Shown: positions 15,611 to 25,508 of the stretch, piece after piece
Layout of the letters: each line of letters begins with the position of its first letter
How positions within the stretch are numbered: the first letter of the stretch is position 1
Origin: Candidatus Micrarchaeia archaeon
GTDB lineage: Archaea > Micrarchaeota > Micrarchaeia > CAILAH01
Reading direction: 5' to 3'
Assembly (NCBI GenBank): GCA_038874595.1
Contig: JAVZCB010000002.1
Coordinates: 96,001 to 160,000 of the forward strand
Length of the DNA stretch: 64,000 bases
Position numbers and translations under genes: made by a program
The notes under the pieces: model-generated
Seen by the model: only the letters and a program-made list of their open reading frames with translations
Database searches by the model: none
What the model was told of the DNA's origin: nothing

Positions 15611-16417
15611 TTATTGTTGTGCCTTTGATATTATTCCAGCCAGTTCCGTGCCTATTTCAAGGATTTCATTATTGCTGAGCTCAAAGATGCGTTTTGAAAG
15701 GCCGTATTTATCAAACTGTTTTGGTATGGCGACGGGCTTTTTGCCTGCGACCTGCTTAAGTATTACCTTAAGTGAGGAGGCAAGCGTTTTCGGCCGATGC
15801 TGGAAAAGCATCGTTATTGCTGATGAAACTTCTTTGCTGAGTGGTGCAACCTTCTTAGGGACGAGCTCTATGAGCATTGAATCAACCTTTGGCACCGGCC
15901 TGAATGCTTGGCGCGGGACTGTAAATAGTGGCTCCATATCAAAGTAATACTGGCTGAAGAAAGACAGGCGCGATTTAACTTTGCCAGCCTCAAGCATTTT
16001 TAGGCAGAACTCTTTCTGGTACATCAGCACCGCACGCTTAAACCTCCAGTCAAGCAGGCGGAAAGTAATTTGCGAAGAAATATAATATGGGATATTACCG
16101 CAAACAATGTCTACTTTGAATGGAGCAATCCCAAGAAAATCCCCTTCTATCACTTCAACATTATATCCTTCAAATTTATTCCTGAGAATGGAGGCATATT
16201 CCGCATCTTTCTCGATTAGGAAAAGCTTTTTTGCACCAAGCGAGATGAGCCTTTCTGACAGCCTGCCATCTCCCGCACCTATCTCAACAATAGTCTTCTG
16301 GGAAGGGGCAACCAACTCCGCCTCAGCATCAAGATACTGTGCACTTGAAAGAAAACACTGGCCAAGTGATTTACTTCTTTTAAGGAAAAACTGCCGCCTC
16401 GATGTTTCACCTGACAT
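15611..16417 (-). CDS. ksgA: 16S rRNA adenine dimethyltransferase (KsgA/Dim1)
   Basis: LGQCFL, EIGAGDG, GNIPYYISS, MYQKEF and FRPVPKVDS motifs; conserved rpl21e-rpoF-DUF655-ksgA order. Confidence 0.93.
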   Translation of the reverse strand: MSGETSRRQFFLKRSKSLGQCFLSSAQYLDAEAELVAPSQKTIVEIGAGDGRLSERLISLGAKKLFLIEKDAEYASILRNKFEGYNVEVIEGDFLGIAPFKVDIVCGNIPYYISSQITFRLLDWRFKRAVLMYQKEFCLKMLEAGKVKSRLSFFSQYYFDMEPLFTVPRQAFRPVPKVDSMLIELVPKKVAPLSKEVSSAITMLFQHRPKTLASSLKVILKQVAGKKPVAIPKQFDKYGLSKRIFELSNNEILEIGTELAGIISKAQQ

Positions 16418-16421
16418 GGTT

Positions 16422-16994
16422 TTACCTGTACCTTGCAGGCCTTACAAACAAGTAATACTTTGAGCCTTGGAGCTCTTCCTCAACCCTCTGCGCAAGGAAA
16501 TCTGGAAGCCTGTTTATGTGTATACGCTTTTCGATATCCATGAAACTCTCGAATGGCTTCTTTGAGCGCTCTTCAACAATCGATGTCATTATTTTCTTGC
16601 CTATGCCGGGGATAAGCTCAAGCTGGTGGACGCGAATATTTATCGGGCCGCTCCTGTTAAAGAAGTCAACAAATTCCTGCTCCCTCAACGAAATTATCTT
16701 TGTTATGACATCGTGCAGGCTGCTTCTTGACGCGGAAGTAAGGTCATTAAAAAACACGCGGCCTTTTATACTTGCAATCTTATCACGCTCGCCCTTCCCG
16801 ACGTAAACACGCTCGCCAACTGTGAATGTCACACCTACTTTTGGGTAGGCTTCGAGTATTGTGAAAAACTTCTCACCAATAAGCTGTACAACGGGCTGCC
16901 TACGCGGGTCATCTGACTTACCGTAGGGAAGAAAGTCCAGGACGTATGCATTCTCTTCCATCTGCTTCTCAAATGATGCGCGCTCTTGCTCCAT
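16422..16994 (-). CDS. DUF655 family predicted RNA-binding protein
   Basis: YVLDFLPYG, RVYVGKGERDKI, HQLELIPGIGKK, PFESF; lies in its usual position between rpoF and ksgA. Confidence 0.92.
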   Translation of the reverse strand: MEQERASFEKQMEENAYVLDFLPYGKSDDPRRQPVVQLIGEKFFTILEAYPKVGVTFTVGERVYVGKGERDKIASIKGRVFFNDLTSASRSSLHDVITKIISLREQEFVDFFNRSGPINIRVHQLELIPGIGKKIMTSIVEERSKKPFESFMDIEKRIHINRLPDFLAQRVEEELQGSKYYLFVRPARYR

Positions 16995-17003
16995 ACAAAC
17001 AAC

Positions 17004-17342
17004 CTACAACGCAGACAATATGTCAAGCACCTGCTTTGCCTGGGCGCTCGTTATATCGCGTTTCTCCTGCTGAAATATAAGCTTAACTTCCTCCTCGGTC
17101 TTTGGCATGAGATCAATCAGCTTGACTGCCATAGCTTCGGAAGCAAACTGTAAATCTGCTATCTTATGCATAAGCTCGTGCGCTTTCGCGACACTCACGT
17201 GGCTGTACTTCTGTGCATAGTCAAGCGTAGCCTTCTGCTCAAAGCCAAGCTCGCCTTCCTTCTGCCTTTCCTCAAGTATATTTGCAACTTCACAGAGCGG
17301 AACCGCCCTTGCACTCTTTATCTCCTTACCTATCATCGCCAC
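17004..17342 (-). CDS. rpoF: RNA polymerase subunit Rpo4 (F)
   Basis: MIGKEI..., ELGFEQKATLDYAQK, AVKLIDLMPKT; operon context. Confidence 0.93.
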   Translation of the reverse strand: MAMIGKEIKSARAVPLCEVANILEERQKEGELGFEQKATLDYAQKYSHVSVAKAHELMHKIADLQFASEAMAVKLIDLMPKTEEEVKLIFQQEKRDITSAQAKQVLDILSAL

Positions 17343-17354
17343 ACCATTTTTGCG

Positions 17355-17633
17355 TTATCGTGCCATCTCAAGATGGACTGGCTGGGAGATAAGCCTCTTC
17401 TTCATCCCACCGTCCTGTATCTCAACGATGTATGAGCTGCCTTGCTTGCCAACGATGGTGCCATGCTTGCCCCTATATCGAGGGTGAGGCATGCCGCCGT
17501 GGCCTGCCTTAATGCATATTGTTACCTTGTCGCCTTCCTTAAATACCTTGAACACCTTTGTTACGCCCAGCCTGCCCTGCGATTTGAGAGACCGCGTATA
17601 TGTAGATAATGTTCCTCTTGACCGCTTAACCAT
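17355..17633 (-). CDS. rpl21e: 50S ribosomal protein L21e
   Basis: MVKRSRG...GMPHPRYRGKHGTIVGKQG...PVHL; start moved to the ATG at 17633. Confidence 0.95.
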   Translation of the reverse strand: MVKRSRGTLSTYTRSLKSQGRLGVTKVFKVFKEGDKVTICIKAGHGGMPHPRYRGKHGTIVGKQGSSYIVEIQDGGMKKRLISQPVHLEMAR

Positions 17634-17754
17634 TTTAAACAACCTTCCCCACACTGCTGATGGATGTGGTTTCTACCTGATGGGATATTTGGGTTTTAAT
17701 ACCTTTTTAAACTTAACTTGATAGTTATATATATGTATTTAAAAAGGTGGTTGT

Positions 17755-18045
17755 ATGCCTAAAAAACCAAAAAGAATTCCTCAACCAAAGTTCAGGATTG
17801 AAAACATCGTAGCATCAGCAGCGCTTAATGTTGAGCTTGACCTTTACTCAATTGCTATGGAAGTCGATGATGTGGAGTATGAGCCGGAGCAGTTTCCGGG
17901 TGCAATACTCAAGCTGAAAAACCCAAAGGCATCGCTCCTGCTTTTCAAGAACGGCAAAATCATATGTACAGGTGGGAAGAGCGAGGAAGAAGTTAAAAAC
18001 GCAATAATGCGCGCAATTAAAATCCTCACACCATACATAAAGTAA
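17755..18045 (+). CDS. Single-repeat (half-length) TATA-box-binding protein homologue, 96 aa
   Basis: One complete TBP repeat: IENIVASAAL...EYEPEQFPGAILKLKNPKASLLLFKNGKIICTGGKS; AGGTGG RBS at 17745-17750; TAA at 18043-18045. Confidence 0.92.
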   Translation: MPKKPKRIPQPKFRIENIVASAALNVELDLYSIAMEVDDVEYEPEQFPGAILKLKNPKASLLLFKNGKIICTGGKSEEEVKNAIMRAIKILTPYIK

Positions 18046-18050
18046 CCTTA

Positions 18051-19013
18051 TTATCTTTTTGATTTTGTGTTTTTTGGTGCAACTTTTTCGTGTAATGACA
18101 ATGCTAGCAGCGGGAATGAGATTGACGCCTCGTCATTGACAAGGACGTGCTTTGCAGAAGGCCTTATCTTGCCCCAGCTTATGGCCTCGTGCGGGAACGC
18201 TCCGCTCAGTGAAGCATCAAACTCTTGCGCTGTTGAGATGTATACTGCCCGCTCTAGGCCTTCGCGCAGCAGGTTAACCCCTATCGTGTAGTGCTTAACT
18301 GCACCTCCACCTATTATGAATGCGCCTGTGCGTTTTGCATTCAGTGTTGTATTTGCAAGGTCACTCATATCTGCGAGCTGGTCAAGAACAAACCCGGGAT
18401 GCTTCTGCCTGTAAAAATAGAGCTGCAGGCCAAGCGCGCCATCTATTATTGATGGGCAGAACACCTTTGCACCCACATCGCGGGCTGCTTTAAGGATTGA
18501 GCCGTTATCGGTTATGCCCTCTGATAATGCATTTATAAGGCCGCGCACAGATACCGGCTTGCCGCCACTTTGCGAGTCCAGAGACTTAATTATGGGCTGT
18601 ACGTAAGATTCAAGTTCTTCGTACCTCTCATTGGGCACAAATATATTCCCTATGCGATTCAGCCCTTTTCTCCTAAGATCAGAATCGTCCGAGTTGAAAC
18701 TGCCAAGGAAAAAGCTACCTTTGCACTTCATTATGTCTTCCTCAATCGCACCTGCTGTCGTTATTATTACGCCTGGCCTGGCATCGCGGATAAACTGTGC
18801 TGCAACTTCGCGCAGCCCCGAGCTAGCTATGTTTGATGTAAAAGAGAAGAAGAGGAGGGTTTCATCATCGGAAACCATCTCATATAGTATCTCATCTGCA
18901 GCTGAAAGGTTGGTTGCCTGGATACCTATCGTTTTATATGCACGAAGCAGTTTCGAATAAGACCTAACATCCTCAAAATCAAAACCTTGTATTTTATCTT
19001 CCATAAAAACCAA
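18051..19013 (-). CDS. dys: Deoxyhypusine synthase
   Basis: GIQATNL, SFTSNIASSGLRE, TAGAIEEDIMK, NRIGNIFVPN, GGGAVKH, DASLSGAFPHEAISWGK (catalytic Lys). Confidence 0.95.
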   Translation of the reverse strand: MVFMEDKIQGFDFEDVRSYSKLLRAYKTIGIQATNLSAADEILYEMVSDDETLLFFSFTSNIASSGLREVAAQFIRDARPGVIITTAGAIEEDIMKCKGSFFLGSFNSDDSDLRRKGLNRIGNIFVPNERYEELESYVQPIIKSLDSQSGGKPVSVRGLINALSEGITDNGSILKAARDVGAKVFCPSIIDGALGLQLYFYRQKHPGFVLDQLADMSDLANTTLNAKRTGAFIIGGGAVKHYTIGVNLLREGLERAVYISTAQEFDASLSGAFPHEAISWGKIRPSAKHVLVNDEASISFPLLALSLHEKVAPKNTKSKR

Positions 19014-19084
19014 TCCGCCGCTGAGCGGCCAATGAGATGTTACTCATAAAGAATAAAAAATAATACGCACTTAAAACTTTGCGT

Positions 19085-19207
19085 GCCCCAGTAACTCAGA
19101 CTGGTAGAGTGCGTCCTTGGTAGGGCTTTTTCTTTGGCAAGGAAAAACCATGGAAAAAGAGCAATCCGGAAAGGACGAAGTCGGGAGTTCAAATCTCCCC
19201 TGGGGCT
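19085..19207 (+). tRNA. tRNA-Thr(GGT) with a 49-nt intron at canonical position 37/38 (intron 19123-19171)
   Basis: Acceptor GCCCCAG/CTGGGGC plus discriminator T; D-arm ACTC/GAGT; anticodon stem CGTCC/GGACG with loop TT-GGT-A^A; T-arm GGGAG-TTCAAAT-CTCCC; bulge-helix-bulge-like pairing TTGG/CCGG; no encoded CCA. Confidence 0.95.
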
Positions 19208-20729: not shown

Positions 20730-23700
20730 TTACCTGAACACTACCCCTGGAGGGGATGAGTCATCGCCTGGAAGGTGCGGCTTATACCCAAGCGGTGGCT
20801 GGGTGGATATTTCATTGTTACTGCTTGAGATTTCTTTTGTGTCCTGCCCATGTTTAGCGTTCCTCTGGCTTTCCTCAGCTTTTCTCTGGAATTCCTTGTT
20901 TATTATTATCTTACCGCTGTCCTCTGAAAGGTAACCCTTCTCTATAAGCTCATCAACAGCTACGCCCACCCTGCCTTTAAATTTAGGTATCATTTTAGGT
21001 GCACCGAAGATTACCAATACTTCGCGTGGGATATCCTCACGCGCAATGCTTATCGCATTGCTTACCACAAGAAGCACTGCAAGCCGTATCTCTGGTGCTG
21101 GGATATAATTGAGCGGGCGGATTTCAGCATCACTTCTCCTTATGTTAAACATAAACCTGGGCTCGCCTGGCCAATACAACTCACCATCAATTTTTATGTC
21201 CTGGCACGGCAAGTGCAAGTTGAGAACTTCATCAAACCTGTTCCTTGCACGCACACCATCCTTGACACCGTAACACTCAAAAATGCGCTTCATCAGCAGG
21301 TCGCGATGTATCGGCCCTTCAGATTTTATGATATCGCGCACACTGTTAAAGAAGTCAGTCTTCATAAAATCGTCAGGTGAGCCGAGCATGGGGCACACGA
21401 TTGTAGGATATTCTTTTATTGCAAATGAGAGCTCGTTATCTGCAAGCAGTTGGCGCTGCCTGGTGCCTTCGTGGTTATCCTGCGCCCGGGTGATTTTCGC
21501 ATCAGGAATTTTAAGGTGCTCAAGTATGCGCTCGGCCTCCTTATCTGGGTTAAGCACCCAGTCATAAGACCATATACGGTGAACCTTCCAGCCAAGAGAT
21601 TCAAGAACCTCGCGCCTGAGCCTGTCGCGGTCACGTGTGCTTTTTGCGCTGCCATATGCCTTGCTATCAAGCTCAATAGCGAGCAGGTAACGGTTGCTAT
21701 CCTCGCTGCTCTTGACTGCAACATCTATGTTGAACCTTGAGCTGCCAACACTTTTATCAACCATAAGGCCATAGGAGAGCAGTTTCCTGTAAACCGCTTC
21801 TTGCAGCTCTGAGTCAAACTCGCTTTGCCTCTTAACCTGTGCTTCGCCTGCTCGCGCATACTGCAAGTATTTCTTGAGCAGGAGTATGCCTTCACTGCCA
21901 ACGCGCAATTCGTTGATATCTTCTGGTAATATTGAAGATACAACTTTGATGCGTTCTATTGCTCTGGATATTGCAACGTTAAGCCTCCGCACGCCGCCAT
22001 CACGGTTGAGTGGGCCAAAGTTGAGTGATAAGTTTCCCTCAGCGTCACGGCCGTAGCCTACGCTCAGTATTATTACATCGCGCTCGTCACCCTGTACTGT
22101 CTCAAGGTTTTTCACGAAAAACCCGCGCAGGTTGCTGCCGTTAAGGAATCTTTGGTATGACGGGTGCCATGTAATAAAGTGGTCAAGCTCTTCAAGTATC
22201 GCCTGCTGCTGTGCAATGCTAAATGCGATTACGCCGAGTGATTTCTCCGGCGTCGTATCATAATGCTGCTTAATGAGCTCAACCACCTTCTTTGCCTCAA
22301 CGCGGTTCTGGCGGCTGCCTCCACGCTCATACACGCCGTTGTGAACGTATACAAAGTCGATTGCAAAGCTATCAACCAGGTTGTTCGGGAAGGTTATAAG
22401 GTCCCCATTATAGAAATACTTGTTTGAGAAGTCTATCAGAGATTCATCCTTGCTCCGGTAATGCCAGCGAAGCATATGTGTTGGGAGGGCTGCAGACGCC
22501 TCATCGAGTATGCTTGCTGCCTCTTCCATTCCCTCTTCAATATCAAGGTCCTCATTAACTTTGAAGAACATCGTGGGAGGTAGCTGCTTTGAATCGCCAA
22601 CTATTATCACCTGCTTGCTGCGTATTATTGCGCTTATTGCATCCTCAACCATAACTTGAGATGCCTCATCAAATATTACTGTATCAAATTCGATTACATC
22701 TGGGTCAATGAACCTGGCGACCGAAAGCGGGCTCATCATAAAGCACGGCTTAAGGACGAATACAAGGTTCTTTATTTCTGAGAACAGCTTGCGCAGTGGC
22801 TTGTGCCTCCTGCTCTTGCTTATCTCCTTTGAGAGTATACCTACCTCTGAGCTGCGCGATGTCAAGCTTATCTTTGGCTTTTTTGCCTCAATCATCTCAA
22901 TGATGCGGTTGCGCGAATAGAACTTGTGCTCCCTATCACTTTCAATAAACTTGCTGTATACCGTGTCCAGGTACTCGCGGCTCTTCCTTGCAATCTCTAC
23001 ATCCATCTGTGAGAGGCACTCCTGCAAGAAGACCTTTTCGTAAAGCTCGCTTAACTTGTAGTTGCGCTCCTCGATTGAAATATATTTATCAAAAACTCTC
23101 CTCGGCTCTGGTGATAGCTTGTCCAGGGTTGCCTTAAACTCAACCCATTTTGATATCTCGCCGGCTTTATTAGAGATGTATTGGAGCCGCTCCTCGAGCC
23201 GCTCCCAGGACGCAGAGAGCAGGAGCCGTTCTGATGCCTCCGTCTCAAAGTATTCGCTTATTGCTAAGTAACTATCCGTAAGTGCGCTTGCATGCGCCGA
23301 AAACTTCTGCGCCAGTGATGCAAAGTCGGCGCCGTCACACACAGAGCGGATAAGCCGGCCGTTGCACATACCTTCAATTGATTTGAGACCCCGTATCCAG
23401 GAGAATATTGCCTGCAGCTCGGCTGGTTCCAGCCGCTCCTCCTTTAGGATACTTTTTATCTCACGCTCCTGTTCTGAAATTTCATTCCAGATGCCTTTGC
23501 ATAACATTGCCTTGCGTATATCGTTCGCCATCTCCTCGTGTGTCAAGTTGGCCTTCTCAAGAAGCAACGCGTGCATATGGTTAGAAATCTTCTTGTACCG
23601 CGGGTCCACCCACCGAACCACCTTAACGGAATACAATCCATCTAATTTTGATACCATATCCTCAAGCTCGTGGTATGAGTGGTTCAGCAGGTTTTCCTTA

Positions 23701-25508
23701 TACTTTGAGAGGAGATATTTGCGCAGTGCTGTATATTCCCCAACCTTGACAATATACTTGTTGAGGCGCATCTCAATATCATCAATATCAATACCAAACC
23801 ATTCCTCATGTATGCGGTAGGATGTTTTTGGCTGCCTTGCCAAGAGAGATATCTTGCCTTCCATCAGCCTGAAATCAAGCAACCTCTTAAAATATAGACC
23901 TGCCTTTTCTTCAAGCTGCCTGCTCTCCTCTTTTATATACTGTATAACCTCAATAGCATTGCCTATGTGCTCCTTTAAAGACTCCTGCTTGAAATCCGTG
24001 AACGCCCTGAAATTCTTATGGTTGACATAGCGAAGGATGCTTGTGTTAAACTCACGCAGCTGGTCTTCGTAGAGGTCAATCTCTTCCATAATGCGCATAT
24101 TATGCTGGAACTCACTGAAATCTGGATGCACACTAAGCCCCACATCTGAGATTTTGACGTGCTCAAGCCGCGCCAGGCGCCCAAGTATCCTGTATAAAGG
24201 CATCTGCACGCTGCCGCTACTCATCAGCTCATCACCGTATGCCTTTAGCACGTTGCGGACATCCTTAAGCTGGTCTATGAGTTGCTCATTGCTTGCATAA
24301 AGCCTGTTCTCTACTAGTGCCTTCTCAAACTGCTCAAGCACCCATTTCTTACCTGCTGTGTCTGCGTTGTGCATCTCAAGCAGGTAAGTGCCTATGCCTG
24401 TGGAATCAAGCCGTTTCTTAACAACTTCAAGTGCGGCCATCTTCTCACTGACAAACAACACCTTTTTGCCATCAGCGAGCTGCTGCGCAATTATGTTTGC
24501 AATCGTCTGGGATTTGCCGGTGCCTGGCGGCCCTTGCAGCACGAAGCTCAGGCCTTTTCGTGCAGCTATTATGGCCTCCTGCTGGCTTGAGTCAGCATCA
24601 AGTACAAAAAATGACTCTTTTGGGTCCAGCGTGTCCACATCTATACTCTCGGGCGGTTGGTAGTGGAGCGCACTCGTATCTCCTGCCAGTGCACGCACAA
24701 CAGGGTGTTTAAGTATGCGCTCCCTGTTTAATTCAAGGTCCCTGTAAAGTGAAAGCTTCTGGAATGAGAATATTCCAAGGTATACTTCATCTGAAGTTAC
24801 TCTCCAACCATATTTTTTCACTTCGGTGGACAATTTGTTAAGGTATTCGTCTAGCGTCTCAAACGGGAAATCAATATCAATACCATTCTGCAGGAGCAGT
24901 TTCTGTCTAAGTGCCGGGTTGATGTGTATATCATCGTCAAGAAATGTGATTGAAAAGGGGTGCTTATCACGTGCTGCCTCTTTCCTGCGCTCAATTTTTA
25001 CCGGGACGAGGATGAGTGGTGCGCGTATTGAACTGCCCACAGCTGAGTTGTCAAGCTGTAGTTGGCCTGGTTGGTGTGATGCGCCCGCCCTGCCCTTCCC
25101 CTTTCTTCTTGTTGAATCGCCAGCCGAATCTATGCTTTCATACTCGAGACAGCCAAATGCCAAGTAAAGTGTGTTGACACCTTGCTCAGAGAGGCTCTCG
25201 CTTGATGCCAGGTAAATGCTGTAAAGCCGGCGGTATGTATCCGCATCGCTATGCTGTGTGCGTAGCACACCTGGCTTTTGGTCGGCTGAGCTGCTCTTTG
25301 CAAAATAGAACCTGCCTGTGCCTGAGATAAAATCATCATAAAACGCCTTCGGGTCTTTAAGGGACAGCTTTAGAGAAGATGCGCCGCCGTCCTTAAAATT
25401 AATGAGCCTGTTGCGCAGGGAGATGTCAAGCAGCTTGCCTTTCCATAACTCTATCTTCTTCTCAATCTTCTGCTCAATAGAAGTAGCCACTCCCTCCGGT
25501 TCGCCCAT
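20730..25508 (-). CDS. DUF4011 - SF1 (DNA2/NAM7-like) helicase - Vsr-like (MTES_1575) nuclease - DUF3320 protein; Hhe-type antiviral defence architecture
   Basis: WKGKLLDISLRNRLINF (DUF4011), QGPPGTGKS, FDEASQ, GDSKQLPP, HYRS, VQGDERD, RRLNVAISRA, RDRDRLRREVLESLGWKVHRIWSYDW, C-terminal EGPIH wHTH-like region. Confidence 0.88.
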   Translation of the reverse strand: MGEPEGVATSIEQKIEKKIELWKGKLLDISLRNRLINFKDGGASSLKLSLKDPKAFYDDFISGTGRFYFAKSSSADQKPGVLRTQHSDADTYRRLYSIYLASSESLSEQGVNTLYLAFGCLEYESIDSAGDSTRRKGKGRAGASHQPGQLQLDNSAVGSSIRAPLILVPVKIERRKEAARDKHPFSITFLDDDIHINPALRQKLLLQNGIDIDFPFETLDEYLNKLSTEVKKYGWRVTSDEVYLGIFSFQKLSLYRDLELNRERILKHPVVRALAGDTSALHYQPPESIDVDTLDPKESFFVLDADSSQQEAIIAARKGLSFVLQGPPGTGKSQTIANIIAQQLADGKKVLFVSEKMAALEVVKKRLDSTGIGTYLLEMHNADTAGKKWVLEQFEKALVENRLYASNEQLIDQLKDVRNVLKAYGDELMSSGSVQMPLYRILGRLARLEHVKISDVGLSVHPDFSEFQHNMRIMEEIDLYEDQLREFNTSILRYVNHKNFRAFTDFKQESLKEHIGNAIEVIQYIKEESRQLEEKAGLYFKRLLDFRLMEGKISLLARQPKTSYRIHEEWFGIDIDDIEMRLNKYIVKVGEYTALRKYLLSKYKENLLNHSYHELEDMVSKLDGLYSVKVVRWVDPRYKKISNHMHALLLEKANLTHEEMANDIRKAMLCKGIWNEISEQEREIKSILKEERLEPAELQAIFSWIRGLKSIEGMCNGRLIRSVCDGADFASLAQKFSAHASALTDSYLAISEYFETEASERLLLSASWERLEERLQYISNKAGEISKWVEFKATLDKLSPEPRRVFDKYISIEERNYKLSELYEKVFLQECLSQMDVEIARKSREYLDTVYSKFIESDREHKFYSRNRIIEMIEAKKPKISLTSRSSEVGILSKEISKSRRHKPLRKLFSEIKNLVFVLKPCFMMSPLSVARFIDPDVIEFDTVIFDEASQVMVEDAISAIIRSKQVIIVGDSKQLPPTMFFKVNEDLDIEEGMEEAASILDEASAALPTHMLRWHYRSKDESLIDFSNKYFYNGDLITFPNNLVDSFAIDFVYVHNGVYERGGSRQNRVEAKKVVELIKQHYDTTPEKSLGVIAFSIAQQQAILEELDHFITWHPSYQRFLNGSNLRGFFVKNLETVQGDERDVIILSVGYGRDAEGNLSLNFGPLNRDGGVRRLNVAISRAIERIKVVSSILPEDINELRVGSEGILLLKKYLQYARAGEAQVKRQSEFDSELQEAVYRKLLSYGLMVDKSVGSSRFNIDVAVKSSEDSNRYLLAIELDSKAYGSAKSTRDRDRLRREVLESLGWKVHRIWSYDWVLNPDKEAERILEHLKIPDAKITRAQDNHEGTRQRQLLADNELSFAIKEYPTIVCPMLGSPDDFMKTDFFNSVRDIIKSEGPIHRDLLMKRIFECYGVKDGVRARNRFDEVLNLHLPCQDIKIDGELYWPGEPRFMFNIRRSDAEIRPLNYIPAPEIRLAVLLVVSNAISIAREDIPREVLVIFGAPKMIPKFKGRVGVAVDELIEKGYLSEDSGKIIINKEFQRKAEESQRNAKHGQDTKEISSSNNEISTQPPLGYKPHLPGDDSSPPGVVFR

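Follow-up and report, generated by a model that had tools for sequence, protein, structure and literature searches.

The gene at positions 17755-18045 of the window (the whole 64,000-nucleotide stretch that was analysed) encodes a TATA-binding protein (TBP) consisting of one repeat instead of two, and it is the only TBP repeat that we found in its genome. The single-repeat TBP is real, conserved and lineage-wide, and the one described here probably serves the cell as its housekeeping TBP in the form of a symmetric homodimer that is oriented by the contact of TFB with the BRE. To our knowledge, TBP has everywhere been described as a monomer with two repeats, and its symmetry has been taken to indicate an ancestor, now lost, with only one. 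Across much of two archaeal phyla, the cultivated A_DKE among them, the half form appears to be the sole TBP type, and our search of the literature, outside which most subscription journals lay, found no published description of a single repeat serving as the sole TBP.

A Pfam search placed exactly one PF00352 repeat at residues 12-92 of the 96-aa protein (profile positions 1-83 of 85, E 2.3e-29). The motifs NIVAS (residues 17-21), EYEPEQFPG (41-49) and GKIICTG (67-73) and both phenylalanines, F47 and F64, are all present, as the first-pass annotation had reported from the letters of the DNA. That annotation had also credited the gene with its own ribosome-binding site and TATA-like tract and had described it as boxed in by its neighbours; a Shine-Dalgarno-like element and two TATA-box candidates do precede the gene, and the boxing-in was confirmed (Table 1). 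The ATG of the divergent rpl21e, at position 17633, is 121 nt from the gene, while the stop codon of the convergent dys, at 18051-18053, leaves a gap of 5 nt; hemmed in by these two genes, the locus cannot accommodate a second repeat. A canonical TBP is defined by two tandem repeats in one chain of about 180 aa; this protein has one repeat in 96 aa and falls below all of the NCBIfam TBP cut-offs. Its orthologues are often annotated as "hypothetical protein". Alignment with the structures 2Z8U, 1MP9 and 1AIS showed that the acidic stirrup and the DNA-contact residues (the S1 asparagine, the phenylalanine pair and GK..TG) are retained. Across 51 single-repeat proteins the segment Y42-G49, which aligns with archaeal TBP stirrups, was invariant, as were the DNA-contact and stirrup residues N17, E43, E45, F47, P48, L62, F64, G67, K68 and I70. 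The exact 96-aa protein was found on five contigs, its 90% cluster has 11 members, all of 94-98 aa, its nearest relatives (97% identity) belong to Ca. Micrarchaeota, and the best-matching sequencing runs are hot-spring metagenomes.

Table 1. Features of the single-repeat TBP locus (positions in the window)
Feature	Position	Strand	Description or basis
Single-repeat TBP gene	17755..18045	+	ATG start, 96 aa, sole TBP repeat of the genome
Codons of strand S1 (residues 13-26; predicted two-fold dimer axis at N17/I18)	17791..17832	+	Interface list of the model
Codons of the acidic stirrup and first DNA-kinking Phe (residues 41-49)	17875..17901	+	Y42-G49 invariant; archaeal TBP alignment
Putative Shine-Dalgarno-like AGGTGG	17745..17750	+	Sequence
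TATA-box candidate TTTTTAAA	17704..17711	+	Best match to the genome's own promoter matrix, 12.0 bits
Palindromic TATA-box candidate TATATATA	17726..17733	+	Modal spacing (-29; genome mode about -30), 7.6 bits
rpl21e	17355..17633	-	First gene of the divergent rpl21e-rpo4-DUF655-ksgA run, the marker of the tbp locus in single- and two-repeat relatives alike
Deoxyhypusine synthase (dys), convergent	18051..19013	-	Closes the locus; neighbour common to the family, including the two-repeat G004

The genome under study, a metagenome-assembled genome (MAG) of Micrarchaeota, comprises 917,795 bases in seven contigs and is 93.5% complete. The genome-wide search for further PF00352 genes that had been proposed was run on the whole of this assembly (Pfam and six-frame phmmer searches, tblastn and a motif search) and found no second TBP repeat: 17755-18045 alone carries one. 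The stretch at C4:100265-100429 was considered as a second TBP and rejected (tblastn E 0.005, phmmer E 0.28, TBP motifs absent). At 93.5% completeness a second TBP gene could be missing, and extra single-repeat paralogues exist in relatives belonging to families f5, f6 and f9. The genome encodes two full TFBs, each with a zinc ribbon and two cyclin repeats. In its promoter motif, derived from 326 upstream regions (log-likelihood of 377 versus 58 +/- 6 in shuffles), an A-rich BRE-like element precedes a TTT(A/T)TAAA box, which lies some 30 nt ahead of the start codons and is a full, near-palindromic element of 8 bp. Because these ordinary archaeal promoters are present and the TBP repeat is the sole one, only the 17755-18045 protein is available to read them. 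Promoter symmetry itself was dropped as support for a symmetric TBP. More palindromic TATA boxes were the predicted side effect of such a protein, and they were not seen in comparison with two-repeat relatives: asymmetry was 0.135 in the genome under study and 0.118-0.130 in the relatives, and the TATA matrices of two two-repeat genomes were also near-palindromic, with bootstrap ranges, based on crude gene calls, that overlapped that of our genome.

The AlphaFold2 model of the monomer (pLDDT 90) has the topology of a TBP lobe and superposes on one lobe of the M. jannaschii TBP 2Z8U with a TMq of 0.82 and an rmsd of 1.3 A. All 44 Foldseek matches at E <= 0.001 were TBP chains or TBP-containing complexes, and the top sequence matches in the PDB were archaeal TBPs, either repeat of 2Z8U aligning equally well (75.0 and 72.4 bits). 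A TBP saddle requires two lobes, each of which supplies a phenylalanine pair and half of the sheet. Since the single gene encodes one lobe, the lobes must come from two chains. The modelling of a homodimer, suggested by the first-pass annotation, was carried out for the protein pair and gave a score of 0.59 versus 0.01 for the best control, with contacts agreeing to at least 91% between runs and a pLDDT of 86; in calibration, the mark was attained by 20 of 30 known dimers and 1 of 23 monomers. The modelled interface sets S1 against S1' about N17/I18 and adds the C-terminal helix. In solved two-repeat TBPs the same interface is formed within one chain, so the high score may have been carried over by the predictor from those structures. 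Natural fusions are better evidence for pairing than the dimer model: head-to-tail duplicates of the half-TBP gene occur at the same locus in P0001 and G004, and their existence indicates that two such repeats can form one TBP.

We propose that two copies of the protein would pair on a two-fold axis through their antiparallel S1 strands (at N17/I18) and their C-terminal helices, which would rebuild the ten-stranded saddle, each subunit contributing one phenylalanine pair (F47 and F64) that would kink the TATA box and one acidic stirrup. Such a dimer would have no polarity of its own, and TFB would set the direction of transcription through its reading of the BRE, which lies upstream of the box. 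A passage in PMC6640164, citing Bell et al. 1999, states that archaeal TBP binds symmetrically and that TFB sets its orientation, so the missing polarity of the dimer is no obstacle. It is quite unlikely that the protein is instead a monomeric half-saddle that forms no stable homodimer and dimerises only on DNA or when held by TFB. Single TBP domains do bind nucleic acid in RNase HIII and in DNA glycosylases (PMC3597702), but the TATA motif of the genome is the full 8-bp box and residues I18-A22, at the modelled S1 interface, are invariant or nearly so.

The locus was examined for collapse or misassembly, which the first-pass annotation had named as a refuting case, in contigs from sequencing runs. 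Run X1 gave a 26-kb contig and run X2 one of 24 kb, each of which spans 16400-19100 unbroken, and no misassembly was found; X1, and possibly X2, may be the source sample of the assembly. That two near-identical repeats had been merged into one by the assembler is extremely unlikely, although the risk is real in this clade, where the exact DNA runs shared within two-repeat TBPs can be as long as 95 nt. One such TBP (L144, G040:C12:15512-15856) was indeed collapsed and has an N gap where the stirrup core is shared. In addition, runs X2 and X3 contain a 301-nt loop contig with a 282-nt period, apparently the TBP of another organism. However, X1 contains no such loop, and in X2 its depth is about four-fold that of the half-TBP locus (49.6 versus 12.9), the locus being whole in both runs. 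The same single gene is also found in six other species of the family, and long-read closed genomes agree with the single-repeat state. Where a MAG of a two-repeat family is called as having a single repeat, the call may in some cases be an artefact; L074 is a suspect.

The survey of homologue length and synteny that had been suggested showed that the single-repeat state is widespread. A TBP match was obtained in 188 of the 192 Micrarchaeia genomes that are at least 90% complete, and 52 of the 192 contain exactly one repeat genome-wide (one of them partial); the possibility that all orthologues are two-repeat genes is thereby removed. At the level of families, single-repeat genes were found in the members examined of 18 families (129 genomes), while 8 families (63 genomes) have two matches per genome, in the same frame where inspected (f21 excepted); these counts are family-level readings, for which a subset of the matches was inspected individually. 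The one-contig genomes G127 and G139 each contain one TBP repeat in total. Two separate single repeats and no two-repeat gene were found in Ca. Micrarchaeum harzensis A_DKE (989,838 bp; QRF74309.1, 110 aa), whose chromosome was closed with PacBio reads (PMC8975820), and in Ca. Mancarchaeum acidiphilum Mia14 (116 and 119 aa); the complete chromosome CP058998 of Ca. Fermentimicrarchaeum limneticum Sv326 has three single repeats and no two-repeat gene. In Diapherotrites/Iainarchaeota (the phylum of locus L043, by NCBI names), 22 of 31 sampled genomes have single repeats only and 5 of 31 have a two-repeat gene; many further Diapherotrites TBPs are two-repeat proteins.

Whether they have one repeat or two, the genes stand head-to-head with rpl21e at nearly all primary loci with upstream sequence, and rpo4, DUF655 and ksgA usually come next. 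Because they share this place, the half gene is the tbp orthologue and not an extra copy, and the orthology is supported both by position and by a tree in which it forms one clade with the two-repeat forms. Purifying selection on the gene is strong: in comparisons with six family members that also have one repeat, dN was 0.013-0.068 and dS was at least 1.4 or saturated (dN/dS 0.01-0.03), which disposes of relaxed selection on this copy. Of the functions that the first-pass annotation had offered, the homodimer is well supported, as the protein is the sole TBP of its genome and the positional tbp orthologue.

Canonical archaeal TBPs (2Z8U; S. acidocaldarius 1MP9; P. woesei 1AIS/1PCZ/1D3U) share with the half-TBP the lobe fold, stirrup, phenylalanine pair, S1 asparagine and promoter type, but they carry two repeats per chain, whereas in the half-TBP the saddle is predicted to lie between chains and to be exactly symmetric. 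Halobacterial TbpA (Brindefalk et al. 2013, PMC3597702) is likewise a stand-alone single repeat that clusters with true TBP domains; it is, however, non-essential and occurs beside full-length TBPs (PMC3597702), while the half-TBP is the only TBP, occupies a housekeeping locus and is present in many families of two phyla. The monopartite proteins of Thermococcales (P. furiosus NP_578195, 96 aa; PMC3597702) have the same size and a single domain, but they are far diverged, form their own cluster and accompany a normal TBP, unlike the half-TBP, which stays close to other TBP repeats and keeps every core motif. As in these accessory proteins, the single TBP domain makes up the whole protein; coexistence with a full-length TBP was not observed in the genome under study or in closed relatives. 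Micrarchaeota are not mentioned in the PMC3597702 survey, which is from 2011, and a survey of DPANN lists TBP merely as present (PMC8407392).

The occurrence of monopartite TBP-domain proteins beside normal TBPs in Halobacteria and Thermococcales (PMC3597702), together with the seven-contig state of the MAG, could suggest that the protein is an accessory decoy or modulator like TbpA and that a true two-repeat TBP lies in unassembled DNA. We consider this highly improbable: the gene occupies the tbp locus itself, and no two-repeat TBP was found in PacBio-closed A_DKE, Mia14, CP058998 or the other one-contig genomes, so that the closed genomes have already largely refuted it. The first-pass annotation had listed a TFB decoy or regulator among its options, and this one is unsupported in a genome that has no canonical TBP to modulate.

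Another of its options, a split TBP in which the protein pairs with a different single-repeat partner encoded elsewhere, is very unlikely here and fails for the genome under study, where the second half was not found. Two halves do occur in every Micrarchaeaceae (f5) genome examined: half A lies at the rpl21e locus and half B in another place. They belong to two lineages (B clade 100/100), and their residues at the modelled contact are reciprocal (Y13/A20 versus I13/V20). Neither our genome nor the other single-repeat genomes of its family contains a second repeat, however, and 52 near-complete genomes, two of them one-contig, have one repeat in total. Outside f5, distinct second halves were found in some genomes of f6 and f9 but in no other family, and a split TBP is plausible for Micrarchaeaceae, which carry two distinct halves.

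Several observations were made on these additional genes. Two single-repeat genes per genome, A at rpl21e and B elsewhere, were recorded at L115-L130 and L270-L282 (f5, including A_DKE and Mia14) and at L154 (f9). With interface residues that are mostly Y13/A20 in A and I13/V20 in B, they are candidates for a split heterodimer or for two insulated homodimers. At L131-L134 (f6, including CP058998) there are two extra, near-identical single-repeat paralogues off the rpl21e locus, located 1.3 kb apart in G043.

The history of the repeats was analysed with a repeat-level tree of 79 rows and 84 columns (LG+G4 without mixture for the topology tests), with an outgroup that included Thermoplasmatota, Theionarchaea and Methanosuratincola and left out Altiarchaeota and Nanoarchaeota. 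All repeats of Micrarchaeota and Iainarchaeota, whether single or fused, grouped together (96/100), and the outgroup N (63/88) and C (79/82) repeats lay outside that group. Forcing the conventional N/C split on the ingroup was rejected (AU p 7e-5), as was a single ingroup duplication (p 2e-5), and within the family of the genome under study the fused forms nest among the singles. The repeats of two-repeat ingroup proteins are unusually alike, with a median within-protein identity of 71% (aa) versus 38% in 129 cluster representatives of other TBPs, and the dS between them is often low (0.15-0.6), which indicates recent duplication or continuing gene conversion. These two processes are inseparable on an 84-column tree, and the two-repeat ingroup forms apparently result from one or the other. 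The two-repeat TBPs of Micrarchaeota and Iainarchaeota (P0001, G004, Anstonellaceae and Diapherotrites) share with the half-TBP the locus and the repeat clade, with up to 90% identity per repeat, and differ in that their repeats are fused, unusually alike and outside the N/C split of other TBPs. P0001 (L204:552-1115) is an in-frame head-to-tail duplicate that includes the leader and has repeats 77% identical in DNA, and G004 (L135/L041) is a second in-frame head-to-tail fusion in the same family and at the same locus; both appear to represent a re-birth of the two-repeat TBP.

Secondary reduction is likelier than an ancestral relic as the origin of the single-repeat state. It is favoured on two grounds. 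Micrarchaeota and Iainarchaeota are not known to branch alone at the archaeal root. A single N/C duplication of old date is common to the remaining archaea and the eukaryotes (PMC4910066). The single-repeat state would have come from homogenisation or collapse of two repeats in the Micrarchaeota-Iainarchaeota stem, and the two-repeat genes of the clade would later have been re-duplicated or kept alike by gene conversion. In a chimera test, where an N-like left and a C-like right part would be the sign of recombination collapse, the singles scored +3.4 +/- 4.0 versus +15 for N and -15 for C, with no left/right switch. Direct descent of the single-repeat TBP from the unduplicated ancestor of all TBPs, with a branching before the N/C duplication, is unlikely. 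The ingroup, outgroup N and outgroup C repeats do form three groups in the tree, and the singles score neither N-like nor C-like, but this descent would require that both phyla branch before all other archaea or that several independent duplications occurred elsewhere. The resemblance to the proposed ancestral TBP that had been suggested for the protein thus stands for its architecture, while descent from that ancestor is the less likely history.

The clade offers a natural series of the duplication step: homodimer-type genes stand beside A+B split pairs, fresh re-fusions and forms with three or four repeats, the number of repeats per TBP protein ranging from one to four. It opens tests of directional initiation by a perfectly symmetric TBP, of the share of TFB-BRE in polarity and of the gain from fusion and divergence of the lobes. 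The use of repeat similarity as an indicator of TBP age (PMC4910066) is undercut: the highest repeat identity reported there was 61.5% (nt), whereas the two-repeat genes of this clade reach 64-89%, apparently via recent events.

Other TBP-like genes were noted during the survey. Four-repeat (726-aa frame) and three-repeat TBP-like proteins are encoded at G224:C8:9538-10695 and in P0008 and P0121, and G224 also has a two-repeat TBP. At L040:4200-4420/L020 (G003), the last 90 nt or so of the single-repeat gene recur immediately downstream of it at least two more times as a degenerate tandem at a contig end, left either by a duplication or by the assembly. In genus g8, a TBP-domain match that is weak (E about 4e-6, 273-aa frame) and possibly represents the N-terminal domain of a DNA glycosylase was seen at G031:C1:118644, G051:C36:6014 and G021:C2:40922. 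In the genome under study, but outside the window, ARAGORN (introns allowed; only 20 tRNAs in all) called tRNA-Pyl(CUA) at C1:93393 and C4:126535, probably miscalled intron-containing tRNAs. Within the window, a 1592-aa helicase-like ORF at 20730-25508 on the minus strand (Walker A, DEA.Q) resembles, by eye, the DUF4011/AAA superfamily-1 helicases.
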